A stretch of 35,814 nucleotides of DNA from NCBI GenBank assembly GCA_964512155.1, contig CAZEHL010000005.1, positions 1-35,814 of the forward strand. The letters are read 5' to 3'. The stretch comes from an uncultured Gammaproteobacteria bacterium. Lineage in GTDB: Bacteria > Patescibacteriota > Patescibacteriia > Patescibacteriales > JAGXOH01. Under the pieces are notes generated by a model. That model did no database searches and was not told where the DNA came from. It was given only the letters and a program-made list of their open reading frames with translations. Below, piece after piece: positions 1,739-15,858 of the stretch (the stretch's first letter is position 1; every line of letters begins with the position of its first letter). Made by a program: the position numbers and the translations under genes.

Positions 1739-1748
1739 AGAATGTATG

Positions 1749-1773
1749 GCGGATCCTTTAGGGGTCCGCTTTT
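1749..1773 (+). terminator. intrinsic terminator after the GGDEF gene
   Basis: gcggatcc-tttag-gggtccgc: 8-bp stem (one G.U) followed by tttt, about 10 nt after the stop codon. Confidence 0.6.
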
Positions 1774-1824
1774 AAATTGGGTTTTATTTTCCCAATTAGA
1801 TTTTAATTCCGCTATGTTTTTTTC

Positions 1825-1876
1825 GGGTTTTGTCGTGGCAAAGTCTCTCGCTGAGGACTCTGCCACAACAAAACCG
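1825..1876. other. long imperfect hairpin (about 20-bp stem, 10-nt loop) in an intergenic region
   Basis: gggttttgtcgtggcaaagtc / gactctgccacaacaaaacc. The two mismatches are A.C on the plus strand but become G.U pairs on the minus strand. Confidence 0.4.
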
Positions 1877-1928
1877 GAGGAATTGTTATAGCTTCAAAAT
1901 GAAATAAGAGCAAGTTATTATTTAGGGG

Positions 1929-1966
1929 TTGACAATACTTTTTTCTTGTATTAATGTGTTAATACA
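1929..1966 (+). promoter_or_regulatory. candidate promoter with overlapping palindromic operator upstream of the TrpR/YerC-like gene
   Basis: TTGACA (1929-1934), 17-nt spacer, TAATGT (1952-1957). The inverted repeat tgtattaa-tgtg-ttaataca (1947-1966) overlaps the -10. Confidence 0.45.
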
Positions 1967-1981
1967 GTAAAACAAATATCT

Positions 1982-2305
1982 ATGACAAAGTTTAAATTCA
2001 ACAAAAAAACCTCCGAGCTATTCGAAGCTATTTTGAGCTTGAAGACCGTGAAAGAGGCAGAGGCCTTTTTTCGGGATCTTTGTACTGCCGAGGAGATAAG
2101 GGATATGGCGGACAGATGGCGGATAGCCCGAATGATAGACGAGGGCAGATCTTATCGCAAAATAGCCCAAGATCTGAGCACCAGCACCACTACCGTGGCG
2201 CGGGTTGCTTCGTGGTTGAACAACGGCCGGGGCGGTTATCGGTTGGTTTTGGACAGACAAGCCTCTCATCATCACAATTCCTCCTCGACCGGGAAAGGAA
2301 TGTGA
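1982..2305 (+). CDS. YerC/YecD (TrpR-like) family DNA-binding protein
   Basis: 107 aa. FFRDLCTAEEIRDMADRWRIARMIDEGRSYRKIAQDLSTSTTTVARV is the typical YerC/TrpR-like helix-turn-helix core. Confidence 0.8.
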   Translation: MTKFKFNKKTSELFEAILSLKTVKEAEAFFRDLCTAEEIRDMADRWRIARMIDEGRSYRKIAQDLSTSTTTVARVASWLNNGRGGYRLVLDRQASHHHNSSSTGKGM

Positions 2306-2389
2306 TGAATTTTGTTTCGGTTTATCTTATTCCCTTCCCGGCCGGGAAGGTTTTTTATTAACCGAAACAAAAACAGAAAGGAGGACAAA

Positions 2390-3001
2390 ATGTTTCAGTC
2401 GAACCTTCAATCACCCGTTCTTTTTTGCCCTTTAAATCTCAACCATTTAAGCAAGGATCTGTTGGAAGAGTGCGCTTCCGTGTATTGCCGGATCTGGAAG
2501 GAGCCGCCCTGGAACGAGAATTTTTGGACCGTTCCCGGGGTTATGGAGGATCTGCGAAGGGAAATGGCCAAAGACGGAGCCGCCGGTTTTCTGTCCCTGT
2601 CTTGGAGTAAAAGGACCGAGGTAACCGGATTTTCCTGGGGGTATCGCGTTAATGCCGAACAATTGGCCGATCTGGCCTCTGATCCGGAAATAAAGAAGTT
2701 CTTTAACCCCGGCGAAATGGCTTTTTATATCGATGAGCTCGGAGTGAGCCCCGGTTACAGAGACAGAGGCATAGGTAAAAGTTTGACCGGGCTACTGGTG
2801 GGACAAGCCCTTTACCGGCGAGCCGGAAAGATATTTTTAAGGACGGACAAGAAAGCTAAGGCGGCCAGAAGCGTTTACAGCGACCTGGGTTTTCGGGAGC
2901 TGGATCTGATGGACGGATCTTACAAAGAAAGAAGTTACTGGCTTTTGGACGCTCGAAGAAATAAGCTGATGTCTATTGGCCACTCTTTGATCCTTGTTTA
3001 A
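2390..3001 (+). CDS. GNAT-family N-acetyltransferase
   Basis: ORF 2312-3001. I prefer the ATG at 2390 because GGAGG lies about 7 nt upstream. Motif A-like IDELGVSPGYRDRGIGKSL. Confidence 0.7.
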   Translation: MFQSNLQSPVLFCPLNLNHLSKDLLEECASVYCRIWKEPPWNENFWTVPGVMEDLRREMAKDGAAGFLSLSWSKRTEVTGFSWGYRVNAEQLADLASDPEIKKFFNPGEMAFYIDELGVSPGYRDRGIGKSLTGLLVGQALYRRAGKIFLRTDKKAKAARSVYSDLGFRELDLMDGSYKERSYWLLDARRNKLMSIGHSLILV

Positions 3002-3099
3002 AAACAGCTAAACGGGGGGGGGTGTGCATTTTAAATGTGCATTTCCCCGCTTTTTATCATCACAAAAATTTAAAATATTTAAATATTAATCAAAAAATT

Positions 3100-3915
3100 A
3101 TGATTCAAGGTGTTACTAAAAAAACGGGAGGGAAACCCGGAAAAAAGTTGGCCGTTTTCGCCGGCGTGCACGGAGATGAAAGGGCCGGAGTTTTTGCGTT
3201 GGAAAAATTGATAAAGAACATTAAGCCCGAGGCCGGGGAAGTTTATTTTGTCTATGCCAACCTCGAGGCCATAGAGCGGGATGTCCGGTATACGGAAAAG
3301 AACTTGAATCGATGTTTCCTAAAGAAAGCGGGAACTGAAAGTTATGAGGAGAAGAGGGCCAAAGAGCTGATGCCGATACTGGATAAGTGCGACGCTCTCT
3401 TGGATCTGCACGCCAGCAACAACAAGGAGGCCACTCCTTTCATTATTTGCGGGGAGGATTGCCGGGATATCGTCGGGATCTTTGATTTTGATATTGTCTC
3501 TTTCGGCTGGGACGATATTGAGCCGGGAGCGACCGACGGCTATATGTACAATCAAGGCAAGCCGGGTATATGCCTGGAGTGCGGTTCTCTCTATCAGTCG
3601 GAAAAGAACGCCGATCTGGCCTATCTCTCGGCTTTGCGGTTTTTGGAGTATTTCGGGGCCGTAAAAAATGAAGCGGGGGAATACAACAAGAGACCCCAGA
3701 GATCGGTTCAGGTGGTCCGGGCTGTTAAAAAGAAGACCGAGGACTTCGGTTTTGTTAAGGATTTTGCCGATTTTGAAAAATTAACCTCGGGAGAAGTTTT
3801 TGCTTGGGACGGCAAAGAGAAATACGTGGCCGGAGAAGATGAATGTATAATCTTTCCCGACAGCAATCAAAAGATCGGGGACGAGGTGTTTGTTTTAGGT
3901 AGATTCATCCGGTAA
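3100..3915 (+). CDS. succinylglutamate desuccinylase/aspartoacylase (AstE/AspA, M14-like) family zinc hydrolase
   Basis: VFAGVHGDERAG, LDLHAS and ICLECG motifs. Start placed at the internal ATG 3100; the 5' extension to 3022 overlaps a terminator-like GGGG...CCCC hairpin. Confidence 0.7.
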   Translation: MIQGVTKKTGGKPGKKLAVFAGVHGDERAGVFALEKLIKNIKPEAGEVYFVYANLEAIERDVRYTEKNLNRCFLKKAGTESYEEKRAKELMPILDKCDALLDLHASNNKEATPFIICGEDCRDIVGIFDFDIVSFGWDDIEPGATDGYMYNQGKPGICLECGSLYQSEKNADLAYLSALRFLEYFGAVKNEAGEYNKRPQRSVQVVRAVKKKTEDFGFVKDFADFEKLTSGEVFAWDGKEKYVAGEDECIIFPDSNQKIGDEVFVLGRFIR

Positions 3916-4176
3916 GATCTCAAAGTCACCCCCAACCCCGATAGATAAAAAGTTGGCAAATAAACAATATTCCTTTGTAATGTATATATAAGTACAGGAA
4001 AAAGGGACGATACTTCAGATAGATTTAAAAAATTGGCCGAAATGGGCGAAGTGTTTTTTATGCGGGGCTATGGTTATGATAAAAAAATTGTGGAGGAGTA
4101 TTTCGATCAAAATATCGCGGACTTTTTAAAAAACCGGACGATTTTATAGACAAGAACATAATTCAAAGAACGATTG

Positions 4177-4202
4177 TAGGACATTTCTATTTTCCCTTTA
4201 CA
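4177..4202 (+). repeat. conserved intergenic box, copy A (core only)
   Basis: taggacatttctattttccctttaca matches the cores at 9620-9644 and 15670-15694. It lies 15 nt upstream of a -35-like TTGATT. Confidence 0.7.
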
Positions 4203-4217
4203 GACCAACACAAGATG

Positions 4218-4246
4218 TTGATTTTATTCTTAATATTAGTTAAATT
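4218..4246 (+). promoter_or_regulatory. candidate promoter of the small ORF
   Basis: TTGATT, 17-nt spacer, TAAATT, about 60 nt upstream of ATG 4306. Confidence 0.4.
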
Positions 4247-4305
4247 TTATATATAGAAAAAAAATCGCACTTTTCAAATAAATCCATAACCCAAGGAGGT
4301 GTTTT

Positions 4306-4476
4306 ATGGCGAAGAATCAACCCAGTAGGAATACCACCAAGCATGGCACTGATCGGTGCAGATCGGGTGGCGGCCCTTCCCACCATTCCCGTTCCGGCGG
4401 TTCTTCCGGAGGTTCGACCAAGAGCGGACGCACCGGCAACACCAAGGGCGGAGGATCCAAGAGGAGTAAACCCTAA
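4306..4476 (+). CDS. 56-aa basic Gly/Ser-rich small protein (below the ORF-track cutoff)
   Basis: AAGGAGG lies 7 nt upstream of the ATG. Translation: MAKNQPSRNTTKHGTDRCRSGGGPSHHSRSGGSSGGSTKSGRTGNTKGGGSKRSKP. A GC-rich hairpin follows 17 nt after the stop. Confidence 0.6.
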   Translation: MAKNQPSRNTTKHGTDRCRSGGGPSHHSRSGGSSGGSTKSGRTGNTKGGGSKRSKP

Positions 4477-4493
4477 TTAAACATCACCCCTTT

Positions 4494-4515
4494 GAGGGAG
4501 CTATTCGGCTCCCTC
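4494..4515. terminator. hairpin between convergent genes (small ORF and M16 peptidase)
   Basis: gagggagc-tattcg-gctccctc: perfect 8-bp stem, followed by a T-rich tract on the plus strand. Confidence 0.55.
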
Positions 4516-4518
4516 TTC

Positions 4519-5718
4519 TCATTTCATTTTAAAAATATAACAATTATTTTGGCTGAATATTTGTTTTTTTAATTTTTTTATCGTTTCATATTCTATTTCT
4601 TCTATTTTTTTCGCCTCTTCTTCCGGAGTAAATATTTTTTTCCGGCCGGCCAATTTATACAAGGCCAGAGAAGACAGGTCTTCAAGATTATCTTGTCTCA
4701 GTTTAAATTCTCGGGCTGTCAATTCTTTTATTTTTTCAAAAAAATCTCCGGAAATTTCTATCTCTTTTAATTGTCGCAACAGTTTTTGATCGGCTTTTTC
4801 GTTTTTTTCTCGGTCGAAAGAAGTAATAATTCTGAATTCGCCGGTGTGTAAAAAGTGGCGGTAAACAATATCTACATCATAGAATTCGCCGTTTTCTTGC
4901 CTTTGAGTTGATATTTTTTTCTCCATTAAATTTGCCAAGAGCAGGTATTGGAAATATTTTTCATCCCGCATTCCTTTTCCGGCCGGAAAAACTAATCCCA
5001 GATAGGTTTGGCTGAATTTATTTTTTTTAATCTCAAAAAAACCGGAGGAATCGTTGCATTTGAATTTTGGTAGATGGAATTCTTTTTTGTCTGCCCGGAA
5101 CTCAAAATTCGATAGCCTGCTTTCTGTTTTTTTGAGTATATATCCCGGGTCAAAGTTTCCGCTGACCGCTAATATCATATTGGCCGGATTATAAAAACGG
5201 AAATACCATTTTTTTATTTCTTCAAGTGTCAGGGAGTTTACAGTTTCTTTTGTTCCCAATATCGGAAGATTTAATGAGTCGTGATAAAATATTTTGTCTA
5301 TTTCTTCTTCCAAAATTTCAAAAGGGTTTTCTTCTTTTTCGTTTATTTCTTCCGAGATGATGTTTTTTTCATTTTCCAATTCTTGAGGTTTGAATTTTAT
5401 TTGTAGAATGTTGTCGAGTAAGACTTTTAGCATTTCTTTTGCATAATCCTTGTGATGGGAAATGGAAAAATAGACAAAATCCTTTCCGGACATTCCTTTG
5501 ATTTCCAAGTTGAATGGAAAGTGTTTTTTTAAATAAGGCTTCCCTTTTTGAGCTATTAGCAAATGTTCCAACAAGTGAGATATGCCGTTGTTTTGAGGCG
5601 ATTCATAAGCGGATCCGGTTTTGATGTATAAACTGATATCCACGGAATTTAAATTCGAGTTATGAATCAGCAATAGGGGCATATCGGAAGTGGTTTGTTT
5701 TTGTTTGATTTTGATCAT
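4519..5718 (-). CDS. M16 (pitrilysin/insulinase) family zinc peptidase
   Basis: 399 aa. Inverted zinc motif HxxEH present (GISHLLEHLL). Length and layout fit a two-domain M16 peptidase. Confidence 0.8.
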   Translation of the reverse strand: MIKIKQKQTTSDMPLLLIHNSNLNSVDISLYIKTGSAYESPQNNGISHLLEHLLIAQKGKPYLKKHFPFNLEIKGMSGKDFVYFSISHHKDYAKEMLKVLLDNILQIKFKPQELENEKNIISEEINEKEENPFEILEEEIDKIFYHDSLNLPILGTKETVNSLTLEEIKKWYFRFYNPANMILAVSGNFDPGYILKKTESRLSNFEFRADKKEFHLPKFKCNDSSGFFEIKKNKFSQTYLGLVFPAGKGMRDEKYFQYLLLANLMEKKISTQRQENGEFYDVDIVYRHFLHTGEFRIITSFDREKNEKADQKLLRQLKEIEISGDFFEKIKELTAREFKLRQDNLEDLSSLALYKLAGRKKIFTPEEEAKKIEEIEYETIKKLKKQIFSQNNCYIFKMK

Positions 5719-5948
5719 AAATGATGTTTTATCGAATATTCGAGCTCCTTAATTTTTTACTTCATTAAAATAATACTATCAAGAGTTACTCGTGTAAAGA
5801 ACTGAACAGGTTGGCTGTCCCGCTCGAAATGCGCTTGAATTTGTTCATTTAATCAAGGAATGAATACATCAATGATGATTTTTATTCATAAAAAGTAGTG
5901 GTCATTTTTAGCTAGGGTTGTAAACTCCGTTCTTAGCTAATTATACCG

Positions 5949-5990
5949 CTACTTTTTTTAGTTTTCCACCACACTAAATATTATAGAGCC
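5949..5990 (-). repeat. conserved intergenic element, copy D (distal part only, inverted)
   Basis: Reverse complement ggctctataatatttagtgtggtggaaaactaaaaaaagtag matches 9580-9621 and 15630-15671. It lies upstream of, and co-oriented with, the M16 gene. Confidence 0.7.
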
Positions 5991-5999
5991 TATATTTAT

Positions 6000-6029
6000 T
6001 TGACCATATCTTTAATTTCTTGGTATAAT
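6000..6029 (+). promoter_or_regulatory. strong sigma70-like promoter (extended -10)
   Basis: TTGACC, 18-nt spacer, TGgTATAAT. It sits about 310 nt upstream of the AsnRS-like gene. Confidence 0.55.
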
Positions 6030-6341
6030 TTAACGAAATAGGTTCGATTATCGTTGTTTCTACTGTGCTTAAATGAGTGTCCCTAAGGGCAAATATCAGG
6101 TTTTTAACCCCGGCGTTTACGTTTACGAGCGGGGAGGCGATTTTTATTCCATATTAAAATTTGACAAGATTACTTTTAGGCTCGCATTCTCTGTCATTAT
6201 TGTTTTTTAAAGATAGATACTTTCATTTGTGTTAGAATAACAGTTAATTTTATCTTTTATTTTAGTATAAACATTTTTCGTTTAAACCTTATTACATAAT
6301 TTTTCTTTTAAGTTAAACGGGTTTTCGAAGCTAGAATTTTT

Positions 6342-7460
6342 ATGTTGCCGAATAATATAAAAAAGGAATTAATAAAAGATGATTTAATTTTTACATCAGA
6401 GAAAAAAAGGTTTTCCACCCCCGAATATTCTCCAGTAGAACATTATAAACATCTTAGTTCCAGTCCATATTATCATGCTTTAGTTGTGTTCAGACATTAT
6501 ATTAAAGTTCTTTCTGATTATTATTTTGGAATAAAACAAAACGCAAAGAACGTTGATCTATTCATGTTCACTCCTTGCATTTCGTCACCCATGGGTCCAG
6601 GCTCAGACTCAGAGCCGATTTCCTTTAGATTTGGAGAATTTGATATTTGTTTAACTGATTCTTCTCAACTTGGTTTTGAGCCATTGTTATTAAATGGATT
6701 GGAGAAAGTGTATTGTTATTTGCCTTCAATGCGAGGAGAAGACAGTGATGAGCGCCATTTAAACCAGTTTTATCATTGCGAAATGGAAATGAAGGGCGAA
6801 TTCGAAGATTTGTTGCCAATAGTTGAGGGATATGTCAAGGCAATGACTAAAACTATTCTATCAATGGAAAATATCGTTAGCAAAATAAGTGACACTCCTG
6901 ATAAAACTTTTGAATATTTGAATAATATAATAAATACAAAAAAATTTCCTACGATTACTTTTGACGAAGCCATTGATATACTCCTCAAGAATGACAAAAA
7001 GAATTTGGTTAATTTCACTAAATATGGTAATGATATTAGTTCTGAAGGTGAAATTGAGCTCATGAATATCTTGAAAATTAAAACTCCTATGTGGATTTCT
7101 GGTTTTGATAGAGATAGGGTCCCGTTTTATCAAAAACCCGACCCTAAAAATCCAGAAAAAACTATTAATGCTGATTTACTTTTCCCGCCCATAACTAAAA
7201 ATTCATTTGGTGGGGAGATAGTGGGAGCCGGCCAACGTCAGGATGATGAAGAAGAGATGTATGAATCTTTTAGGAGGCAGAATAATCTCTCCTCAGAATC
7301 ATATGAATGGTATATTGATTTAAGAAGGCACCCAAATTATAAAATTACCTCCGGTTTTGGCTTGGGGGTAGAAAGATTCATTGCTTGGAGTCTAGGGAAG
7401 GTCAACATTCGAGATGTTGTTTTATACCCAAGAATAAAAGATGTTAATGTCTTACCGTAA
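6342..7460 (+). CDS. stand-alone class II aaRS catalytic core, AsnRS/AspRS-like (AsnA/AS-AR-like paralog), no anticodon-binding domain
   Basis: 372 aa. Motif-2-like SMRGEDSDERHLNQFYHCEMEM, GGEIVGAGQRQDD, and motif 3 GFGLGVERFIAWSLGKVNIRDVVLYPR. No N-terminal OB-fold segment. Confidence 0.8.
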   Translation: MLPNNIKKELIKDDLIFTSEKKRFSTPEYSPVEHYKHLSSSPYYHALVVFRHYIKVLSDYYFGIKQNAKNVDLFMFTPCISSPMGPGSDSEPISFRFGEFDICLTDSSQLGFEPLLLNGLEKVYCYLPSMRGEDSDERHLNQFYHCEMEMKGEFEDLLPIVEGYVKAMTKTILSMENIVSKISDTPDKTFEYLNNIINTKKFPTITFDEAIDILLKNDKKNLVNFTKYGNDISSEGEIELMNILKIKTPMWISGFDRDRVPFYQKPDPKNPEKTINADLLFPPITKNSFGGEIVGAGQRQDDEEEMYESFRRQNNLSSESYEWYIDLRRHPNYKITSGFGLGVERFIAWSLGKVNIRDVVLYPRIKDVNVLP

Positions 7461-7477
7461 AAATAAATGTAAAAAAT

Positions 7478-8317
7478 ATGAACAAACAAGAATTTGATAA
7501 TTTTTTTGAATCTTATGCTAAAAATGTTGATAATGCTAATAGGCAGGGTTTTTGGAAGTTGTCTGATGCTTTAATTATGCAAATAATTAAAGATAATATT
7601 TCTATGGATATAGGCAGTCGGCAAGTAATTCTAGATGCAGGTGGGGGAACGGGAAGATGGGTGTGCGATTTGAGTAAAATGTATAAAGCGAAATTTATAA
7701 TCTATGATTTATCAATAGATATGATCAGAAAAGCGAAGGAAAATATTAAAAAAGCTCAAATAGAAAATAGGGTTGATGTTATTCAGGGAAACTTAAAGAA
7801 CATGAAAGAGTTAGAGTCTGAGTCGGTTGATTTTATTATTAGTGTTTATAGCCCTATAAGTTTTGTTGACGAAAAAGAGAAGGTTTTCGAGGAACTTTGT
7901 AGGGTACTTAAGAAGGGTGGTAAGATTATGATAATGGGACATGGTTTCTTTAATGCTATTTTTTCAAAAATAAATAATTATTATGCAGAAGAAGGGGAGC
8001 TGTCTACTTTAGAGAGGGAAGAAGTGGTAAAATGGGATAATAATGTTCCAAGGTTAAATATTTTTTCCAAAGAAACGATGGAAAATCATTTATTGAAGGC
8101 AGGGTTTTATATTGAGAAAACTTATGGCGTGCCAGCTTTTGTCCAACCTCAACAGGAAGATTTTGATCCTGAAAATATTAAAAAGAGTCGCATTTCTCAA
8201 GCTTTAGAAGACGGAAATTTTTTTAAAAAAGTGTTTGAACTGGAAATGAAATATAATTGTAAACCAACTGTTGCAAACAGGGGGGTAAATATATTCAGTG
8301 TAGCTACTAAAAAATAA
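7478..8317 (+). CDS. class I SAM-dependent methyltransferase
   Basis: 279 aa. Motif I ILDAGGGTGRW and post-I IIYDLS. 17-nt gap from the upstream gene. Confidence 0.8.
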   Translation: MNKQEFDNFFESYAKNVDNANRQGFWKLSDALIMQIIKDNISMDIGSRQVILDAGGGTGRWVCDLSKMYKAKFIIYDLSIDMIRKAKENIKKAQIENRVDVIQGNLKNMKELESESVDFIISVYSPISFVDEKEKVFEELCRVLKKGGKIMIMGHGFFNAIFSKINNYYAEEGELSTLEREEVVKWDNNVPRLNIFSKETMENHLLKAGFYIEKTYGVPAFVQPQQEDFDPENIKKSRISQALEDGNFFKKVFELEMKYNCKPTVANRGVNIFSVATKK

Positions 8318-8326
8318 AATAAGTAT

Positions 8327-9358
8327 ATGAAATTGTGTAATCCTGCAAAGCTAGAAAAGGGTGACACTATCGGAATAGTTTCCCCTTCATCCGGATTAGC
8401 TAATTTATTCCCCCATAGAGTAGAAAAAGGGAAGAGAATGTTGGAAGAGATGGGGTTTAATGTTGTTTTTTCTAAACATTCTCTTGAGAAGTGGGGCTGG
8501 ACATCAGGTTCTCCTTTCGATCGTACAAATGATTTGCATGAAATGTTTTCCCGGCGGGATATCAAGGCTATCATTTGTACCATTGGAGGAAATCATTCAA
8601 ATCAATTATTAAAATATATAGACTTTGATCTGGTAGCTAAAAATAAAAAAATATTTTTAGGCTATTCAGATATTACTGTTTTACATTATGCATTTGCGCA
8701 AAAATCAAATTTAAGAACTTTTTATGGACCCTGTCTTATGCCTGAATTTGGGGAGTATCCAGAAATACTTCCTTACACCTTAAAATTTTTTAAGAGTGCT
8801 TTAATGAAAACTGATCCAATAGGAAAGATTGTTCAATCTGATACTTGGACCGATGAATTTTTAGATTGGTTTAAAAAAGAGGATTTGACCCGCCCCAGAA
8901 CTATGAATGAATCAAAGGGGTATGAATGGTGGCAAGAAGGTAAAGCTGAAGGTCAAATAATAGGAGGAGCGATTCCCACTTTAACATATTTGGCCGGCAC
9001 TGAATATTGGATCGATCCTAAGGGTAAACTTTTTTTTATAGATATTCCGGAGGGGGATTATCCGGGAGAACCATTCAGCAAATCTTGGCTAGATACATTT
9101 TTGTCTAATATGGACAATCTTGGTGTCTTTAGTTCCATCTCTGGATTAATTATTGGTAGGCCTTATGGTTATCAAAATAAGGACAATGAAGAGCTGAAAG
9201 AGATCATGGGAAAATATACTAAAGATCATAATTTCCCTATATTGTTCAATGTTAATCTAGGTCATACATCTCCAATTATAACTTTACCGTTTGGAGCTAA
9301 AGCTATTATTGACTCTGAAAATAATAATTTCGAAATTTTGGAATCAGGAGTAAAATAA
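8327..9358 (+). CDS. S66 LD-carboxypeptidase / MccF-like serine peptidase
   Basis: 343 aa. GDTIGIVSPSSG N-terminus, nucleophile context GYSDITVLH, NLGHTSP histidine. 9-nt gap from the methyltransferase. Confidence 0.85.
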   Translation: MKLCNPAKLEKGDTIGIVSPSSGLANLFPHRVEKGKRMLEEMGFNVVFSKHSLEKWGWTSGSPFDRTNDLHEMFSRRDIKAIICTIGGNHSNQLLKYIDFDLVAKNKKIFLGYSDITVLHYAFAQKSNLRTFYGPCLMPEFGEYPEILPYTLKFFKSALMKTDPIGKIVQSDTWTDEFLDWFKKEDLTRPRTMNESKGYEWWQEGKAEGQIIGGAIPTLTYLAGTEYWIDPKGKLFFIDIPEGDYPGEPFSKSWLDTFLSNMDNLGVFSSISGLIIGRPYGYQNKDNEELKEIMGKYTKDHNFPILFNVNLGHTSPIITLPFGAKAIIDSENNNFEILESGVK

Positions 9359-9359
9359 A

Positions 9360-9389
9360 CCCCTCGATTTTATTCAACCGAGGGGTTTT
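9360..9389 (+). terminator. intrinsic terminator of the AsnRS-like/MTase/S66 operon
   Basis: cccctcg-12 nt-cgagggg followed by tttt, starting 2 nt after the stop. Confidence 0.7.
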
Positions 9390-9393
9390 GTAG

Positions 9394-9639
9394 TTATTCT
9401 CCGATATCCGTTCGATAATCAAGAGCGTTGGGTACAACTTCCTTTAAAACCTCATAAATTCTTTTTCTTGCCTCCTTCATCGTTTTATTGGAATGTTCGA
9501 ATAATAAAACAGGGGAATTCTGGAGTTGTAATGTGCGATAATCATTATCTTCTTCAATTGCATCCACCCATCCAGTAAAGGCTCTATAATATTTAGCGTG
9601 GTGGAAAGCTAAAAAAAGCAGGACATTTCTATTTCCCCT
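9394..9639 (-). pseudogene. start-less 81-codon open frame, possible 3' gene remnant
   Basis: Open from stop to stop (...FHHAKYYRAFTGWVDAIEEDNDYRTLQLQNSPVLLFEHSNKTMKEARKRIYEVLKEV...GE*) with no plausible start or RBS. Its 5' part coincides with repeat copy B. Confidence 0.2.
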
Positions 9640-9644
9640 TTACA
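9580..9644 (+). repeat. conserved intergenic element, copy B (distal part plus core; proximal part displaced to 10965 onward by the IS)
   Basis: ggctctataatatttagcgtggtggaaagctaaaaaaagcaggacatttctatttcccctttaca aligns at roughly 80 percent (by eye) with copy C at 15630-15694. Confidence 0.75.
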
Positions 9645-9650
9645 AGCAAG

Positions 9651-10964
9651 TCACTAGTGTCCGAGATAATTTTCACCAGAAACTCATTTGAGGATTTTCA
9701 ACCCTCTTTATTTTAAAAACGGTTTGGCTGTCCAAGGATAATAAATCAATTAAATTCCTCCTGATCATCAAAGTTTCTCTGATCATTCTGGTTAGCTCAA
9801 GCAGGGATTTGGAAAATTTAGTCTGAAATTTGATGTAAACAAGTAACAAATAATAGATCATGGCTATCCAGATCTGCGTCATAACCGCATTTTTACCGGT
9901 TCCCAGGAAAGTTTTGATTTTCAAATTCTGTTTTATCCATTTAAAAAATAACTCTATCTGCCACCTATCTTTGTAGATATCAGCAACCTGCTTAGCTGAT
10001 AATTCAAAATTATTTGTTAAATAGACATACTTCTTTTTAGTTTCCTTGTCCCAATATTTAATTCTTCTCAATCTATCGGGGTATTTTTTGTAATGCATAA
10101 CACTGTAATCCCCGAATATCACCATTTCATCGGCTAATATTCCTTTTTCCATTTTTTTGCCCTCATGCTGTCCGACAACAAAGATATTTTGATTGGTTTT
10201 TGCTCTTGAGACGAAAAATAGCCCCTTCTCATTCATTTTCTTCCACTGTTCATAATCAATGTAGGCGCGGTCAAAAGTCAATATACTGCCTTTTTCAAGC
10301 CTGTCTAGGTCTATTTGCTTAAATACGGATACATCTGCGCTTTTACCATCTGTGATATTAACTAACTCCGGAATTGCTGTCCGATTGTTTAGGAGTGTAT
10401 GAATTTTGAGTGCTCCTTTGGTGGTTCTGTATTTGGCCCAGTCGAACATGGACAGGCATAATTGGATTGTGGTGGAGTCGAAACTGTATAAGGGGTTGTT
10501 GAAGCTAAATTTTTCATTGTTCCCGGAAGCCATTTCCCGGCATTGATCCAATAACTGGTAAAACAATTTTTCATAAATTCGATAGTCCCGCCTGGCATTG
10601 GCGTCCGACAGAGTGGATTTGGCTGAAGTTTTCACTCCCAAATGATACCAGCTACCCTCATGCATATCAAAGCCTGTCTCTATTTCTCTTAAACTCTCTT
10701 TGCCCGTGGCTTGGGCAAAAAGCATCAGGATAAATTGATTCCAGGCATTCATTTTTTTAGTGGATTTATCAGCGTTATGTTCTTTTACAAATTGTTCAAA
10801 TTTGTATTTAGGTAGAAAACCTAGTAATTGGTTAAAGATTGTGTTAGTGTATTTATACATAGAAGTCCGAATTTTTAGAGTTAATAATAGTTTCGACACC
10901 TATATTATACCCTAAAATCGGGCTTCTTTTAATTTTTGGTGAAAATTATCTCGGACACTAGTGA
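9651..10964 (-). mobile_element. complete IS4-family-like insertion sequence (1314 bp)
   Basis: Perfect 28-bp terminal inverted repeats: tcactagtgtccgagataattttcacca at 9651-9678 and its reverse complement at 10937-10964. A single transposase ORF fills the element. No clean target-site duplication seen. Confidence 0.85.
9673..10860 (-). CDS. IS4-like DDE transposase (DUF4372-type N-terminus)
   Basis: The N-terminus MYKYTNTIFNQLLGFLPKYKFEQFV...FILMLFAQATGKESLREIE is typical of DUF4372+DDE_Tnp_1 transposases. The ORF track extends to a GTG at 10899; ATG 10860 is preferred. Confidence 0.85.
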   Translation of the reverse strand: MYKYTNTIFNQLLGFLPKYKFEQFVKEHNADKSTKKMNAWNQFILMLFAQATGKESLREIETGFDMHEGSWYHLGVKTSAKSTLSDANARRDYRIYEKLFYQLLDQCREMASGNNEKFSFNNPLYSFDSTTIQLCLSMFDWAKYRTTKGALKIHTLLNNRTAIPELVNITDGKSADVSVFKQIDLDRLEKGSILTFDRAYIDYEQWKKMNEKGLFFVSRAKTNQNIFVVGQHEGKKMEKGILADEMVIFGDYSVMHYKKYPDRLRRIKYWDKETKKKYVYLTNNFELSAKQVADIYKDRWQIELFFKWIKQNLKIKTFLGTGKNAVMTQIWIAMIYYLLLVYIKFQTKFSKSLLELTRMIRETLMIRRNLIDLLSLDSQTVFKIKRVENPQMSFW

Positions 10965-11117: not shown

Positions 11118-12566
11118 ATGATAAAAATATATAATTCTTTGAGTAGAAAAAAGGAAGAATTTAAGCCTGTACAAGAACAAGAAGTTAATATGTATGCTTG
11201 CGGGGTTACTCCTTATGCCGATATCCATGTCGGCCATGCCAGGCAAGCAATTGTGTATGATATTATTAGAGCTTATTTTAAGTATCGTGGTTATAATGTA
11301 AATTATATACGTAATTTTACTGATGTGGATGACAAAATAATCGATAAAGCCAATAAAGAAAAAAAAGAAAGTGGTCATATCAGTGAATATTATATCCAGG
11401 AAAACACCAAAGACCTGGATTCACTTAAAGTCCATCGAGCCACTCATGAACCAAAAGTTACTGATTGCATCCCGGAGATAATCGAATTCATTCAAAAATT
11501 GATTGACAAGGGATATGCTTACGAAGCAGGTGGAGATATTTTTTTTGAGATTAATAAATACAGTGAGTATGGAAAATTGTCTAATCGAAAAAAAGAAGAC
11601 TTGATAAATTCGGATGAATCTCCGAACAAGAGAAATAGCAATGACTTTGTTTTATGGAAATCACATAAACCAGGAGAGCCATATTGGGAATCACCGTGGT
11701 CCAAGGGACGCCCAGGTTGGCACATTGAGTGCTCTGTGATGGCCCATAAGTATTTAGGGAGTGAAATAGATATTCATGGTGGAGGATTAGACCTAATTTT
11801 TCCTCATCATGAAAATGAAATTGCGCAAAGTGAAGCCTATTCCGGTAAAAAATTCGCTCATTATTGGGTTCATAACGGCACAGTAATGATTGAAGGAGCT
11901 AAGATGAGCAAAAGTGAGGGTAATTTCCTAATAGTCAAAGATATATTAACTGAATTTTTCCCGGATGAGATTAGATATGCTATTTTGGCCCATCACTACA
12001 ACTCAAATATGGATTTTTCTTATGAATTACTTTTGAATGCGCGAAAACGAGTATATTATTTTTATAAAAGTTTGGACAAATTTGCTAATATTGCGAATAG
12101 AAAGAATGAGAAGATTGATATAAATAAAGATAAGTTACCAGCAAGCATTACCAATTTCGAGAAAAAATTCGTAGAGTATATGGATAATGACTTTAACACG
12201 CCCAAAGTATTTTCCGAACTCTCCGAGGCTTTCAAGATTTTAAACAAGATTGCTGATTCCCAAGAATATTCATCCGCTGAGAAGAGCTCTGTTTTTAATA
12301 TTTTCTTTGAGCAATTCAATAAAATTTCAGCTGTTCTCAGGTTGTTTGATGAAAATCCAAAAAAATATCTGGCACAATTTAAAAGAAAATTCTTGCAGGA
12401 TCAAGGGGTGAATGAACAATATATAGAGCGGAAAATAATCGAGCGACAAAAGGCTAAAAAAGAAAAGGACTATACAAAGGCGGACCATATCAAGGAGGAA
12501 CTTTTGGAAAAGGGGATTTCAGTGCAAGATCTACCTTATTCCACAAGTTGGGATATAATATTATGA
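11118..12566 (+). CDS. cysS: cysteine--tRNA ligase
   Basis: 482 aa. HIGH-type motif HVGHARQA and KMSKS motif (AKMSKSEGN). Class I CysRS length and layout. Confidence 0.92.
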   Translation: MIKIYNSLSRKKEEFKPVQEQEVNMYACGVTPYADIHVGHARQAIVYDIIRAYFKYRGYNVNYIRNFTDVDDKIIDKANKEKKESGHISEYYIQENTKDLDSLKVHRATHEPKVTDCIPEIIEFIQKLIDKGYAYEAGGDIFFEINKYSEYGKLSNRKKEDLINSDESPNKRNSNDFVLWKSHKPGEPYWESPWSKGRPGWHIECSVMAHKYLGSEIDIHGGGLDLIFPHHENEIAQSEAYSGKKFAHYWVHNGTVMIEGAKMSKSEGNFLIVKDILTEFFPDEIRYAILAHHYNSNMDFSYELLLNARKRVYYFYKSLDKFANIANRKNEKIDINKDKLPASITNFEKKFVEYMDNDFNTPKVFSELSEAFKILNKIADSQEYSSAEKSSVFNIFFEQFNKISAVLRLFDENPKKYLAQFKRKFLQDQGVNEQYIERKIIERQKAKKEKDYTKADHIKEELLEKGISVQDLPYSTSWDIIL

Positions 12567-12839
12567 TCTTCTGTAAATTAGAGGGGCAAGTTTTATTGCA
12601 ACAGAGTTGTCGCCGGGGACTTATAAGTAGAATTTTCGAAAATATTGTGCTACTCCAGTTTATTTAGACACCAAGCCATTATTAAGTGGGGTCTACTGAC
12701 AAAGTCAGCCAGGAGATAAGAATTTTAATAATAAAGAAAAATTATTTTCCTTACATCAAGAGAAAGAAAAGAAATAATTTTTCAGGACTTGTTAATTTTT
12801 TTGAAAAATTAGCAATCCCCTTAATTAATTTATAGCATT

Positions 12840-13340
12840 ATGGAAAAAATAAAAAAAATGGAAGAAGAAAATAGCAAAGAATCGATTAATTTATCTTTCC
12901 GGGAGGCTGGTAATGATGAGTTGGAAAGCATAACAGAAATATGGTGGGAAAATATTGCACAAGATGGGAGAGACTTAAAAGAAGATGCTAAAGAGCAACG
13001 GCTTAGAGAATATCAAGATAGAATTGAGAGCGAAGATGATTGTTTTATTTTGGCAGAGGCAGAGACAAAAGGGGTGGTAGGATATATCCATTGTGTTTTA
13101 GAAAGTAACAAATATGAATCCAAAGAAGGGGAAGATGTTACCGGATGGATAAAAACATTAGCGGTTGACAAAGAAATGCAGGGGCAAAGAATCGGAAGTA
13201 AATTAATTAAACAAGCGGAAGAGTATTTTAAAAAGAAGGGGGTAAGTAAAGTGTATATAAAAACCAATCAAGTTGATTTTTATGAAAAAGCGGGGTTTGA
13301 AAAATTTACTTATATATTAAAAAAGAATCTTGAAAATTAA
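12840..13340 (+). CDS. GNAT-family N-acetyltransferase
   Basis: 166 aa. Motif A LAVDKEMQGQRIGSKLIKQAEEYFKKKG. Confidence 0.75.
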   Translation: MEKIKKMEEENSKESINLSFREAGNDELESITEIWWENIAQDGRDLKEDAKEQRLREYQDRIESEDDCFILAEAETKGVVGYIHCVLESNKYESKEGEDVTGWIKTLAVDKEMQGQRIGSKLIKQAEEYFKKKGVSKVYIKTNQVDFYEKAGFEKFTYILKKNLEN

Positions 13341-14484
13341 ATTAATAGAAAATATGAATGAGGATAATGTAAATAAACAATTTCCTTCTACAAAAAAAAG
13401 GTTGCATGTTGAACTTACGGGTAAATGCAATTTAAAGTGCGTGTATTGCTTCCAGTCTTCGTGGAATACCCCTGAAAAAGTCAAGCAAGAATTGTCATCG
13501 GACGATTTTAAAAAAATCATAGATCAAGCTCAAGAAATTGGATGTGAAGTGGTAACTATCACAGGAGGAGAGCCTTTTTTAAGACGAGATATTTGGGATA
13601 TAATCAGATATTGCGAAGGACTTAAAGTGGAGATATTGACCAACAGTGAACTTTTACAAAAGAGCGATATTAGGTATATAGGAGAAAATTTACCTCAGGT
13701 AAAAGTGCTCAAGATAAGTATAGATGGCACAGAAGGACATGATATTACACGGAAGGGGAGTAGTTACACGAAAATTTTAGAGAATTTTTATTTATTTAAA
13801 CAATACACACAATGTAAGTTAATTGCCAATACTATTATCACTTATTTTACTGCTAGGGACCTACTTTCATTATATAAAGAGTTGAAAAAAGTCCCGATTG
13901 ATACCTGGCGGATAGATCTTCCTTTCTTGTCGGGTAGATATGTTGAGAACAGAGAGAATTATGAGATTTCACCGGGGAAAAGCATGGAGTTTATTATCCC
14001 TTTATTAAAGGAATATTTTGATGATAGAAAACCTTTTGAGCTTGAGCTATTTAATTTATATAAGTCCGGGATTATTACTAATGAATTATTTGAATTTGAC
14101 GTAAATTTGCACCCATGTTCCTATAGCGGATGGCGGACTTTATGCATCAAGCCCAATGGTGATTTAATTTTTTGTCCATCTTTGTTAACTCCTTTTTCCA
14201 ATATTAAAAATAAATATGGAGAGATTAATATATCGAAAGCAATTGAAGATGCTAAAAAAAATAATTTCTTTCAAATAAGTGTAGGAGACATTGAAAAATG
14301 TAAAAATTGTAAATATTTAAATATATGCGGAAGTGGGTGTAGGGCGGATGCGCTATATTGGGAGAATGACATTTTAGCCCCCGACCCGGTTGCCTGTAAA
14401 TATATGGAGTTGATGGAAAAGAGAGTTCTACCAATTTTGCCGCAAGAGGAGTCCGTTTATCTTAGTAAATTAATTAAACAATGA
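13330..14484 (+). CDS. radical SAM / SPASM-domain enzyme 1
   Basis: CNLKCVYC (CxxxCxxC) cluster near the N-terminus, GGEP motif, and C-terminal Cys-rich SPASM-like CKNCKYLNICGSGCRADA. The start is ambiguous: TTG at 13330 overlaps the GNAT stop, and an ATG lies at 13354. Confidence 0.85.
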   Translation: MKIKLIENMNEDNVNKQFPSTKKRLHVELTGKCNLKCVYCFQSSWNTPEKVKQELSSDDFKKIIDQAQEIGCEVVTITGGEPFLRRDIWDIIRYCEGLKVEILTNSELLQKSDIRYIGENLPQVKVLKISIDGTEGHDITRKGSSYTKILENFYLFKQYTQCKLIANTIITYFTARDLLSLYKELKKVPIDTWRIDLPFLSGRYVENRENYEISPGKSMEFIIPLLKEYFDDRKPFELELFNLYKSGIITNELFEFDVNLHPCSYSGWRTLCIKPNGDLIFCPSLLTPFSNIKNKYGEINISKAIEDAKKNNFFQISVGDIEKCKNCKYLNICGSGCRADALYWENDILAPDPVACKYMELMEKRVLPILPQEESVYLSKLIKQ

Positions 14485-15500: not shown

Positions 15501-15505
15501 TAATT

Positions 15506-15540
15506 TTCTATTTATTAAAAAATAATTTTAATAAATAGAA
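15506..15540 (+). terminator. perfect AT-only hairpin directly after rSAM-2
   Basis: ttctatttattaaaa-aataa-ttttaataaatagaa: 15-bp perfect arms. The stem is all A/T, so terminator function is uncertain. Confidence 0.3.
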
Positions 15541-15550
15541 AGAAAAAATT

Positions 15551-15586
15551 ATGCAATCTTTGAAAGGACATTGTATGGATTGTTAA
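15551..15586 (+). CDS. 11-codon Cys-containing mini-ORF (MQSLKGHCMDC), speculative
   Basis: ATG 15551, TAA 15584-15586. Sits between the AT hairpin and a GC-rich terminator. Only a weak purine-rich stretch lies upstream. Confidence 0.12.
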   Translation: MQSLKGHCMDC

Positions 15587-15591
15587 TCCTT

Positions 15592-15620
15592 ACAAACGCC
15601 CACTTTAAGTGGGCGTTTGT
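15592..15620 (+). terminator. intrinsic terminator-like hairpin ending the GNAT/rSAM unit
   Basis: acaaacgcccac-tttaa-gtgggcgtttgt: perfect 12-bp stem. Only a short T tract follows. Confidence 0.6.
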
Positions 15621-15629
15621 GATTCTTGG

Positions 15630-15713
15630 AGCTCTACAATATTTAATGTGATGCAAAGTTAAAAAAAGTAGGACATTTCTGTTCCCCCTTTACATAGAGC
15701 TGCAACTCTTGAC
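15630..15713 (+). repeat. conserved intergenic element, copy C (complete, uninterrupted)
   Basis: agctctacaatatttaatgtgatgcaaagttaaaaaaagtaggacatttctgttccccctttacatagagctgcaactcttgac. Aligns with copy B on both sides of the IS insertion point. Confidence 0.75.
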
Positions 15714-15737
15714 TTATTTTGAATAAATTGTTATATT
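15709..15737 (+). promoter_or_regulatory. candidate promoter downstream of repeat copy C
   Basis: TTGACT, 17-nt spacer, TATATT. Confidence 0.45.
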
Positions 15738-15858
15738 AAAAGTGTTAGTGCCACTAACACTTTTTAAAAACAAAAAGGAGGGAATAAAACAAAAACTTTG
15801 TTTGTTTTATTTTATTTGTCCTTTGACAATACCAACCAAAATTACAGGAGGTATAAAT

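Follow-up and report, generated by a model that had tools for sequence, protein, structure and literature searches.

A three-gene cassette resembling the agrocin 84 aminoacyl-nucleotide system in a CPR bacterium

Agrocin 84, encoded by the agn cluster of plasmid pAgK84 in Rhizobium rhizogenes K84, and microcin C, encoded by the mcc system of E. coli, are "Trojan-horse" antibiotics. In pAgK84, agnA is followed by a SAM-dependent transferase (MT) gene, with agnC5 further on. AgnA, the "agrocin 84 synthetase", is described as a truncated AsnRS homolog lacking the anticodon domain and is proposed, although neither it nor any other enzyme of its family has been characterized biochemically and the agrocin 84 pathway is still called "unknown" (PMC8323819), to attach the pentanamide precursor to AMP through the phosphoramide bond (PMC4392301, PMC8323819). 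In the mcc system, MccD alkylates the phosphoramidate of microcin C, and MccF, an S66 hydrolase, provides self-immunity. Stand-alone class IIb catalytic cores without an anticodon-binding domain are also found in ordinary amino acid biosynthesis, as in archaeal asparagine synthetase AS-AR and bacterial AsnA.

Here, we examined a 35,814-nucleotide stretch of DNA from a Patescibacteria (CPR) bacterium (contig CAZEHL010000005.1, assembly GCA_964512155.1; hereafter, the window), in which a first-pass annotation had noted three linked genes for an AsnRS-like catalytic core, a methyltransferase, and an MccF/LdcA-type S66 peptidase. We found that these genes are relatives of the core enzymes that make and cleave agrocin 84 and microcin C, and that the same trio recurs in about a hundred mostly uncultured lineages, pointing to an undescribed family of nucleotide-type compounds that mimic charged amino acids. 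We found no paper describing this cassette.

Three linked genes and their predicted products

The operon has the following parts:
6000 to 6029, plus strand: candidate promoter (TTGACC, 18 nt, TG-TATAAT; 11/12 match), 313 nt upstream of the start codon
6342 to 7460, plus strand: AgnA-family protein of 372 aa, a stand-alone AsnRS-like class IIb catalytic core without an anticodon-binding domain, presumed to be the amino-acid/ATP-dependent nucleotidyl-transferring enzyme
7478 to 8317, plus strand: class I SAM-dependent transferase of 279 aa, of a subfamily here called window type, in the decorating-enzyme slot of the cassette
8327 to 9358, plus strand: MccF/AgnC5-clade S66 serine hydrolase of 343 aa, presumed to cleave the acyl-N bond of aminoacyl/N-acyl-phosphoramidate nucleotides
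9357 to 9388: bidirectional hairpin terminator closing the operon, which also ends a convergent 57-aa ORF (9394 to 9567, minus strand)

The three-gene operon described in the first-pass annotation is real: the genes are codirectional, separated by 17 and 9 nt, and share one terminator, and the end assigned to the feature (9389) is right. The hairpin, a G+C-rich 13-bp stem with 6 G-C pairs and T-runs on both strands, is the only terminator-like site after the third gene. The transcription unit probably starts further upstream than the first gene, since a strong sigma-70-like site lies at 6000 to 6029, next to an interspersed repeat copy (5949 to 5994); however, this is weak evidence, as it rests on a consensus scan only. 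No Rfam element and no convincing small ORF were found in the 620-nt leader.

The first gene product contains tRNA-synt_2 (PF00152, residues 96 to 365, E 3e-34) but no PF01336 OB-fold, and class II motif 2 (SMRGE...RHLNQFYHCE) and motif 3 (GFGLGVERF) are present and invariant in the family. Its AlphaFold model (pLDDT 84.5) has a helical N-terminus, not a beta-barrel, and matches AsnRS catalytic domains best (1x54, TM 0.76, 30% identity). The protein aligns end to end with AgnA, with 31% identity over 337 aa by BLASTP (E 7e-48, residues 31 to 364), a probability of 100% by hhalign (E 8.5e-48, 339 columns), and 200.6 bits for AgnA against the family HMM (AgnA residues 6 to 345). The shared motifs are SSPMGxGSDS, DSxQ, RGE, PFYQ, GE..GAGxR, and GFGLGxERF, and both proteins show the same sub-threshold NCBIfam profile. 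The observation is far beyond chance: homologs reach E 1e-181, and the gene trio recurs in about 80 independent loci. The protein has 2377 homologs, of which the top 120 are all about 372 aa.

The second gene product matches Methyltransf_25/11/31 (E 1e-16 to 3e-19), with only generic similarity to solved structures (CmoM 8joz, 35 bits). It is not of the AgnB1/MccD type: the AgnB1-type HMM scores AgnB1 at 270 bits, MccD at 148 bits, and the window MT at only 55 bits, whereas the window-type HMM scores AgnB1 and MccD at 27 and 25 bits, and BLASTP comparisons were generic or gave nothing, with no similarity to MccD. The window MT shares the position but not the subfamily. A PADLOC search for known anti-phage defense systems returned no hits for the first and third genes and only a generic MT-domain hit (mad2) for the second.

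The third gene product has the N- and C-terminal Peptidase_S66 domains and belongs to the MccF/AgnC5 clade rather than with LdcA. It scores 220 bits to B. anthracis BA3275, 195 to BA5613, and 165 to 172 to MccF, but at most 63 to LdcA structures, and the NCBIfam LdcA model NF008424 scores 87 against a cutoff of 378. It is 35% identical to AgnC5 over 340 aa (E 5e-69) and 32% identical to plasmid MccF by tblastn. Trp181 aligns with the adenine-stacking W186 of MccF (PMC8323819) and is conserved in AgnC5 and in 68/71 cassette S66 proteins, and Trp174 corresponds to W179. Ser114 and His313, equivalent to MccF S118 (PMC8323819) and H311, are conserved in 71/71 family members. The acid position, E243 in MccF, is Asp239 in the window (Glu in 52 family members, Asp in 19), a conservative change that, judged from sequence alone and with H311 and E243 placed by their sequence context in MccF, is probably functional.

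A recurrent and variable cassette

Across 83 non-redundant loci, mostly from Patescibacteria, the AgnA-like gene is accompanied by an S66 gene in 77 (93%), on the same strand in 72/77, by an MT gene in 72 (87%), and by both in 66. The window-type MT is the commonest subtype in the cassettes, with 34 proteins, while 20 sister-cassette MTs are AgnB1-type, including full-length AgnB1 orthologs (best, 38% identity over 276 aa, E 1e-69). Only about 100 of 185,579 species representatives carry the cassette, with a sporadic, HGT-like distribution at 49 to 71% identity across CPR classes, plus records labelled Micavibrio, Bdellovibrionales, a Calothrix plasmid, and archaea. Moreover, the cassette appears truncated or mosaic in some natural populations.

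The window carries the minimal three-gene form, whereas its closest relatives, in a five-gene form, add an RlmN/Cfr-like radical SAM enzyme and a LysRS paralog. In 58/83 loci there is a variable second ligase-like gene, encoding X3 (a cassette-associated protein), a type-2 373-aa protein, the LysRS paralog, or an ATP-grasp enzyme; X3 and the type-2 protein have only marginal class II aaRS-like hits (E 3e-4 and 8e-3) and no detectable relation to AgnC1. MccE1-like PLP decarboxylases, similar to the MccE N-terminus (E 3e-14), follow the cassette in 3 loci. Other accessory genes are typical of small-molecule pathways, including ATP-grasp ligases of the BacD/DdaF type, a kinase, an HD hydrolase, ABC exporters, and LeuRS, MetRS, or LysRS-like genes beside some cassettes. 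However, exporters are adjacent in only about 6 loci, and the ABC exporter of the window (23156 to 24976) is 14 kb away.

What the cassette may make

The first-pass annotation had proposed a small aminoacyl-nucleotide biosynthesis/immunity cassette or a protection module against such inhibitors, and our analyses support this interpretation, with biosynthesis plus immunity or processing favored over pure protection. Two outcomes named in advance as refuting it were not observed: the core protein does not group tightly with AsnA or AS-AR and the trio is co-conserved, and the S66 protein groups with MccF-type enzymes rather than murein LD-carboxypeptidases.

With moderate confidence, we suggest that the three genes form an operon that is the conserved core of a compact, horizontally mobile cassette, evolutionarily tied to the agn and mcc systems, that makes and cleaves an aminoacyl-adenylate-like (N-acyl phosphoramidate) nucleotide. 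In this view, the AgnA-like enzyme, which keeps every ATP- and amino-acid-binding motif and the AsnRS-type Glu (Q+4 in DSSQLGFE) and Arg (GAGQR) pair, would bind asparagine, or another carboxamide-bearing acid, together with ATP and build an amino-acid-AMP linkage. Because AgnA is the enzyme proposed to make the N-acyl phosphoramidate bond of agrocin 84, the product is most likely a non-hydrolysable aminoacyl-adenylate mimic and not a transient adenylate. The SAM-dependent transferase would then decorate this nucleotide, in the slot filled by AgnB1/MccD-type enzymes in sister cassettes. The MccF/AgnC5-type hydrolase would cleave the carboxamide bond between the acyl or aminoacyl part and the nucleotide, either to keep the producer's own tRNA synthetase free of inhibitor, as MccF does, or as a processing step. 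What our data establish are the homologies, the motif conservation, the shared position of the transferase, and the clade membership of the hydrolase with its conserved catalytic Ser and His and adenine-stacking residues; the substrates, the formation of the N-P bond, the acceptor atom and group transferred by the MT, the hydrolytic activity and its role, and the product itself are all inferred. Several features weigh against this model. Nothing in the window encodes an obvious uptake carrier moiety, the operon contains no exporter or resistant aaRS, and its MT is not AgnB1/MccD-type. In addition, a hydrolase co-transcribed with the synthetase would cause a futile cycle unless it is selective for a particular form, CPR bacteria are not known producers of antibiotics, and, as noted above, the cassette appears truncated or mosaic in some natural populations.

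A possible but less likely alternative is that the S66 enzyme is biosynthetic and not an immunity factor. The AsnRS-like enzyme would use asparagine as nitrogen donor to form an aspartamide-N-AMP, following the logic of MccB, and the MccF-like hydrolase would then remove aspartate to leave adenosine 5'-phosphoramidate, which the MT may methylate and which, in larger cassettes, a second ligase would re-acylate with another (amino) acid to set target specificity. MccF cleavage of processed McC indeed releases (aminopropyl-)adenosine phosphoramide (PMC9239234), and the near-universal, tightly coupled pairing of the AgnA-like and S66 genes is easier to explain as consecutive steps than as toxin plus antidote in one transcript. 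This reading would also explain why an AsnRS-like enzyme serves a leucine-mimic pathway and why most loci add a variable second ligase-like gene. Moreover, agnC5 sits in the biosynthetic agnC operon, and the published review lists only agnB2 and agnG as immunity genes. However, this is pure inference, as no such pathway has been reported, the candidate second ligases have only the marginal similarities given above, and the window lacks a second ligase, so its end product would be a bare phosphoramidate of unknown use. In its broadest and equally tentative form, the pair would be a general, previously unrecognized two-enzyme machine for making P-N nucleotides, with a swappable ligase giving mimics of different aminoacyl-adenylates (Leu in agrocin 84, perhaps Lys in the five-gene form). 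If true, this would solve the open agrocin 84 pathway and mean that ultra-small episymbiotic CPR bacteria deploy a programmable family of tRNA-synthetase inhibitors.

A protection-only module, in which the S66 enzyme hydrolyses imported aminoacyl-nucleotide antibiotics, the MT modifies them, and the AsnRS-like core acts as a decoy or binder, is unlikely. Stand-alone MccF homologs confer McC resistance (PMC8323819), CPR bacteria depend on importing peptides and nucleotides and so are exposed to Trojan-horse compounds, and the window operon has no exporter or carrier gene. However, the catalytic motifs of the AgnA-like protein (motif 2 Arg/Glu, motif 3 Arg, the GE..G.G.R block) are invariant across the family, which a passive decoy would not need; AgnA is annotated as a biosynthetic enzyme; and the MccD/MccE1-type decoration enzymes, ATP-grasp ligases, and radical SAM enzymes of sister cassettes are biosynthetic and not detoxifying.

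Ordinary metabolism, with an AS-AR-type asparagine synthetase, a murein LD-carboxypeptidase, and an unrelated methyltransferase linked incidentally or through cell-wall peptide amidation, is very unlikely. One-step Asn synthesis would be useful to CPR genomes with few amino-acid pathways, the S66 family includes LdcA, and the asparagine synthetase A model NF005055 aligns over the full length, but the model scores and S66 relationships argue otherwise, co-occurrence of 93% and 87% across phyla cannot be incidental, and the rarity of the cassette does not fit housekeeping. Equally improbable is macromolecule modification, in which, as for GluQRS (tRNA) or EpmA (EF-P), the core would aminoacylate a tRNA nucleoside or a protein, the MT cap the added residue, and the S66 carboxypeptidase remove it: although EpmA models hit the LysRS-like accessory protein, the five-gene form has an RlmN/Cfr-like RNA methylase, and the best named MT hit is the tRNA methyltransferase CmoM (only 62 bits against a cutoff of 366), no target gene is co-conserved, the RlmN-like protein lacks the N-terminal domain of RlmN (matching model positions 82 to 341), the family pI ranges from 5 to 9.5 with no consistent basic surface signal, and the clear homologs AgnA and AgnC5 belong to a small-molecule pathway.

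Relation to described systems

Compared to canonical AsnRS, which has the closest fold, motifs 2 and 3, and the Asn-type Glu/Arg pair in the amino-acid pocket, the AgnA-like protein has no OB-fold anticodon-binding domain, and it scores 168 bits against the asnS cutoff of 343 and 169 against the PRK03932 cutoff of 414. In addition, its distinctive, invariant SSPMGPGSDS loop is shared with AgnA and differs from the P. horikoshii AsnRS sequence in the aligned region. Compared to AS-AR and AsnA, it is likewise a stand-alone class IIb core, but it scores 162 bits against the NF005055 cutoff of 389 and 121 against the NF005053 cutoff of 322. PDB AS-AR matches only the C-terminal part at 42 bits, E. 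coli AsnA gives no hit, and the Foldseek top 50 are all AsnRS/AspRS. AS-AR and AsnA are also not known to travel with an MccF-type hydrolase and an MT.

The microcin C system shares with the cassette its MccF-clade enzyme, the MccD-related and MccE1-like enzymes of sister cassettes, and, in our model, its overall logic of an adenylating enzyme, a SAM-dependent decorator, and an acyl-N hydrolase acting on an aspartyl/asparaginyl-nucleotide. However, no MccB homolog was found in the 83 loci at E 1e-3, Pfam scans of the larger ORFs of the window show no ThiF-type domain, and no MccA-type heptapeptide gene, MFS pump, or MccE2-type GNAT is present, the two GNATs of the window not matching MccE. The adenylating enzyme is aaRS-derived and would act on a free amino acid, not on a ribosomal peptide.

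Compared to the agn cluster, the first and third genes are full-length homologs of AgnA (31% for the window protein, up to 35% in the family) and AgnC5, and, as in pAgK84, the AgnA-type gene is immediately followed by a SAM-dependent transferase. A class I aaRS gene lies beside 5 cassettes (at least three look like LeuRS, and one is MetRS-like), recalling AgnB2. In contrast, the window MT is of a different class I subfamily, the window has no homologs of AgnC1-C4, C6, C7, D, E, or F, the AgnG pump, or a resistant LeuRS, the cassette has 3 genes and not 17, its hosts are CPR bacteria and not Rhizobiaceae, and its amino-acid moiety is probably not the leucine-like pentanamide.

The three genes and their protein families

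The first-pass annotation had described an operon of an AsnRS-like catalytic core without an anticodon-binding domain, a SAM methyltransferase (MT) and an S66 peptidase, with short intergenic gaps and a common terminator, and this observation is confirmed in the sequence. The open reading frames lie exactly where they had been placed, separated by 17 and 9 nt:

6342-7460 (+), gene 1 (A), 372 aa, class II D/K/N-type synthetase core without an OB anticodon domain
7478-8317 (+), gene 2 (M), 279 aa, class I SAM methyltransferase fold
8327-9358 (+), gene 3 (S), 343 aa, with both S66 peptidase domains
9357-9388, 13-bp G+C-rich hairpin with T-runs on both sides, the only terminator-like site after the third gene

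These domain assignments are confirmed by Pfam. All NCBIfam equivalog hits (asnS, archaeal asparagine synthetase A, and LdcA) fall far below their curated cutoffs, so none of the three is an ordinary member of those families. Upstream of the operon, no credible Rfam hit or small ORF was found that would suggest a riboswitch, T-box, or leader peptide.

By sequence, gene 1 matches AsnRS catalytic domains best (P. horikoshii 1x54, 125 bits), whereas it matches archaeal AS-AR only weakly (42 bits, C-terminus) and E. coli AsnA not at all. The AlphaFold model (pLDDT 84.5, pTM 0.88) has a predicted helical N-terminus in place of a beta-barrel, and its top 50 Foldseek neighbors are all AsnRS or AspRS, with 1x54 at TM 0.76. 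Motif 2, motif 3, the GE..GAGQR block, and a Glu at Q+4 of the DSSQ motif are invariant in the family. A Glu at that position is the AsnRS pattern, whereas AspRS has a Lys at Q+3. An acidic motif-2 loop or overall charge was considered as evidence against RNA binding but was dropped, since the family pI ranges from 5 to 9.5.

Gene 3 scores 220, 195, and 165-172 bits against the MccF-type structures BA3275, BA5613, and MccF, respectively, and at most 63 bits against LdcA structures. Gene 2 has only generic class I methyltransferase similarity, its best named structure being CmoM at 35 bits.

Distribution and layouts of the cassette

The 372-aa protein has thousands of homologs, of which the best 120 are all about 372 aa and 58-71% identical and are named in the sources only "amino acid--tRNA ligase-related protein". 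A scan of one genome per species found 106 carriers among 185,579 species. They are overwhelmingly Patescibacteria, including Saccharibacteria, Paceibacteria, Moranbacteria, Gracilibacteria, and many others, with a few records labeled Micavibrio, Bdellovibrionales, Calothrix (including a complete plasmid, AP018229), Gammaproteobacteria, and archaea. This is a sporadic distribution of the kind that horizontal transfer produces.

Unbiased clustering of all ORFs within 5 kb in 83 non-redundant loci shows a true S66 gene in 77 and a class I MT in 72, with both in 66. In the 51 loci with at least 3 kb of flank on both sides, the corresponding figures are 48, 47, and 44. The S66 gene is on the same strand in 72 of 77 loci. 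Three main layouts are found:

A-M-S, as in the window, often followed by a ~385-aa protein (here called protein X3) and sometimes with a second MT
HD-hydrolase, MT, a 373-aa protein (here called the type-2 protein), S66, then A
A-M-S followed by an RlmN/Cfr-like radical SAM enzyme and a divergent LysRS paralog, sometimes next to the true LysRS (the five-gene layout)

The closest relatives of the window (about 70% identity) have the five-gene layout, including an assembly labeled Desulfonauticus submarinus. The five-gene form is found, for example, in assembly GCA_053937255.1 and in the Moranbacteria assembly GCA_000989885.1. In the window itself, tblastn found no remnant of protein X3 and no radical SAM or LysRS-like gene there.

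The extended cassettes (locus L001, 9026-11286, and loci L003, L005, L033, L039, L042, L063, and L089) carry an RlmN/Cfr-like radical SAM adenine C-methyltransferase of 301 aa that lacks the N-terminal domain (RlmN model positions 82-341, 197 bits against a cutoff of 290). They also carry the LysRS paralog, which has a degenerate OB domain (286 bits against 468) and in three loci is directly followed by the bona fide LysRS. This may be a resistant or substrate-activating LysRS copy together with nucleobase methylation of a small molecule. In locus L001, from the Moranbacteria genome, the five-gene cassette sits directly downstream of a TraG/TrwB-type coupling protein, a DUF8128 protein, a sigma-70-like factor, and DnaB (936-5242), suggesting carriage on an integrative or conjugative element.

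Protein X3 (26 loci; for example, locus L067, 4986-6140, minus strand) and the type-2 protein (24 proteins; for example, locus L024, 4879-5997) recur inside the cassettes as two unassigned families of about 373-385 aa. They were examined as possible AgnC1 relatives or class II aaRS cores, but both identities were set aside, since Pfam and NCBIfam gave only marginal class II aaRS-like hits (HisRS/HisZ, E 3e-4; AlaRS, E 8e-3) and hhalign shows no relation to AgnC1, to each other, or to the A family. They remain candidates for a second ligase.

Genomic context in the window

The window is a whole 35.8-kb contig from a patescibacterium, and the surroundings of the operon contain mobile and repeated DNA as well as other gene groups:

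2312-3915, a GNAT acetyltransferase followed 20 nt later by an AstE/AspA-family (aspartoacylase/succinylglutamate desuccinylase) protein, an acylase and deacylase pair upstream of the cassette
4307-4480 and 9394-9567 (minus strand), two small ORFs without a family assignment, one a 57-aa Gly/Ser/Arg/Lys-rich basic protein behind a repeat copy, the other a 57-aa ORF convergent with the operon that shares its terminator
5949-5989 (inverted), 9581-9644, 15631-15694, and 4176-4202 (second half only), copies of a ~65-nt interspersed repeat (GCTCTATAATATTTAGCGTGGTGGAAAGCTAAAAAAAGCAGGACATTTCTATTTCCCCTTTACA)
8-42 and 19055-19089, a 35-nt palindromic sequence (AAATAAATGTTT(T/C)ACACTGGCCAGTGTGAAACATT) occurring twice, 19 kb apart, which may be a terminator or protein-binding palindrome, or a repeat element
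9651-10964, an IS4-family insertion sequence (408-aa DDE transposase with DUF4372, minus strand; 32-nt terminal inverted repeats, 97% match), 260 nt downstream of the operon, between it and cysS
11118-12566, CysRS
12840-13340, GNAT
13330-14484, radical SAM
14481-15500, radical SAM with SPASM
15742-16800, Methyltransf_20
16864-19035, 7TM-GAF histidine kinase
19656-21329, MetRS, 59-64% identical to named Falkowbacteria, Paceibacterota, and Parcubacteria enzymes
21581-22996, archaeal-type ProRS
23156-24976, ABC exporter
30118-35767 (minus strand), an array of SUKH/SMI1-KNR4 immunity-type proteins (32974-33453, plus 34523-35113 and 35117-35767, which are tandem duplicates 89% identical over 300 nt), with a 945-aa protein carrying an N-terminal SUKH domain next to a 1238-aa DEAD-helicase/S1 protein, suggesting a polymorphic-toxin immunity island

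A 46-nt inverted repeat brackets the operon (5949-5994 and 9576-9621) and was considered as a pair of transposon ends. However, it is part of the ~65-nt interspersed element, whose further copies lie elsewhere, so it is not a cassette-specific boundary. Each copy of the element lies upstream of a gene in the same orientation and contains a TATAAT, and assembly depth around 5719-6035 is 6-9 times that of the flanks in metagenome run X1, so it is multi-copy. It may be a shared promoter or regulatory module, or a MITE-like element. The depth of the IS4-family element is about 2-6 times that of the flanks in several metagenomes, so it is multi-copy and probably active.

Near-identical DNA occurs in microbial-mat, hypersaline-lake, oil-field, and subsurface metagenomes. 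In three of those runs (X3, X4, and X9; oil-field and subsurface), contigs match 7901-9644 at about 98% identity but diverge completely to the left of 7901, inside the MT gene. These populations keep the S66 gene and the MT 3' end, while gene 1 and the 5' two-thirds of the MT are lacking or replaced by unrelated sequence, indicating recombination or decay of the cassette in nature.

The density of translation and modification genes at 11118-24976 is unusual, and the overlapping GNAT, radical SAM, and radical SAM-SPASM genes, with the Methyltransf_20 gene 240 nt further on, look like a separate peptide- or cofactor-modifying operon. None of the downstream genes from CysRS to the ABC exporter matches Agn or Mcc proteins, and the window GNATs, including the one at 2312-3915, were considered as MccE2-like but show no significant match to MccE. 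Apart from sporadic kinases, exporters, and aaRS genes, these genes do not recur next to the cassette in other loci.

Relation to agrocin 84 and microcin C and the inferred pathway

A tblastn search of plasmids with the S66 protein hit agnC5 ("MccF-like protein") on pAgK84, the agrocin 84 plasmid. In that record agnA ("Agrocin84-synthetase", 353 aa) is immediately followed by a SAM-dependent methyltransferase and then by the resistant LeuRS agnB2. Gene 1 of the window aligns with AgnA over its whole length (31% identity, E 7e-48), including the distinctive SSPMG(P/L)GSDS loop. The family profile gives AgnA an hhalign probability of 100% and 200.6 HMM bits, against 16-21 bits for LysRS-type proteins, and AgnA shows the same sub-threshold pattern on curated models as the window protein. 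AgnA is described as a truncated AsnRS homolog lacking the anticodon-binding domain and is proposed to attach the pentanamide precursor to AMP through the phosphoramide bond, although the pathway itself is stated to be unknown (PMC4392301, PMC8323819).

The S66 protein is 35% identical to AgnC5 over 340 aa. Aligned with E. coli MccF from a plasmid mcc cluster, it keeps the nucleophile Ser114 (S118), His313 (H311), and both loop tryptophans, including Trp181, the equivalent of W186, which stacks on the adenine of processed microcin C (PMC8323819). The triad acid is Asp239 where MccF has Glu. Across the S66 proteins of the cassette, Ser and His are invariant, the W186 equivalent is present in 68 of 71, and the acid is Glu in 52 and Asp in 19.

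In sister cassettes, 20 MT proteins belong to a subfamily whose profile scores AgnB1 at 270 bits and MccD, the SAM-dependent aminocarboxypropyl transferase of microcin C, at 148 bits. The best member is 38% identical to AgnB1 over 276 aa, and in three of these loci a PLP decarboxylase related to the MccE N-terminal domain follows. The MT of the window belongs to a different and more common subfamily (34 proteins) and fails the AgnB1/MccD profile test, so it shares the position, not the family.

The first-pass annotation had interpreted the three genes as a possible small aminoacyl-nucleotide (Trojan-horse type) biosynthesis/immunity cassette, or a protection module against such inhibitors, and our analysis supports this interpretation, with protection alone disfavored. 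The operon structure, the family membership of genes 1 and 3, the conservation of their catalytic and ligand-contacting residues (with Asp at the acid position of gene 3), and the very strong co-occurrence of the three functions are established by the analysis, whereas the chemistry that follows is inferred. In this view, the AsnRS-derived enzyme would use ATP and an Asn-like substrate to build an aminoacyl- or N-acyl-AMP linkage, probably a phosphoramidate as proposed for AgnA, the SAM enzyme would decorate that nucleotide, and the MccF-type enzyme would cleave the acyl-N bond.

Two roles are possible for this last step, namely self-immunity, as for MccF, or a genuine pathway step. MccF cleavage leaves adenosine phosphoramide (PMC9239234), so an AgnA-like and MccF-like pair could convert Asn + ATP into Asp + adenosine 5'-phosphoramidate, whose nitrogen a second, variable ligase could re-acylate. 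That reading would explain why an AsnRS-like enzyme serves a leucine-mimic pathway, why the pair is almost inseparable, and why 58 of 83 loci add a variable ligase-like gene. It rests on inference alone, and we regard it separately as tentative and rather unlikely.

A protection-only module is disfavored because gene 1 keeps all catalytic motifs and the sister cassettes carry biosynthetic-type accessory enzymes. Plain asparagine synthesis plus murein recycling is disfavored by the failed family tests, the MccF-clade placement, the co-conservation, and the sporadic distribution. Modification of tRNA or protein has no co-conserved target, and the clear small-molecule homologs argue against it. 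As for a known anti-phage defense system, no PADLOC model matches genes 1 or 3.

Only a handful of natural phosphoramidate nucleotides are known, namely agrocin 84, microcin C-like compounds, phosmidosines, and dinogunellins (PMC6429109). A 2021 review found agn-like clusters in RefSeq only in one Ensifer strain and some Actinobacteria (PMC8323819), and our literature searches found no description of this cassette or of agn-like clusters in CPR bacteria, although their coverage was incomplete and a description elsewhere cannot be excluded. The cassette shows that the AgnA and MccF-like pair is the conserved heart of a much larger family, distributed through the Candidate Phyla Radiation and a few other lineages in the manner that horizontal transfer produces. 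It offers a minimal, three-gene system in which the key, unsolved N-P bond-forming step could be reconstituted, and it gives the stand-alone "amino acid--tRNA ligase-related" proteins of CPR genomes a testable function. It also raises the possibility that genome-reduced episymbionts make or handle aaRS-inhibitor-type molecules in their dealings with hosts or competitors. The kinds of enzyme are already known, being AgnA-like, MccF-like, and SAM-dependent decorators of aminoacyl-nucleotide antibiotics, whereas the compact three-gene cassette, its own MT subfamily, its modular accessory set, and its wide spread in CPR bacteria appear to be new.
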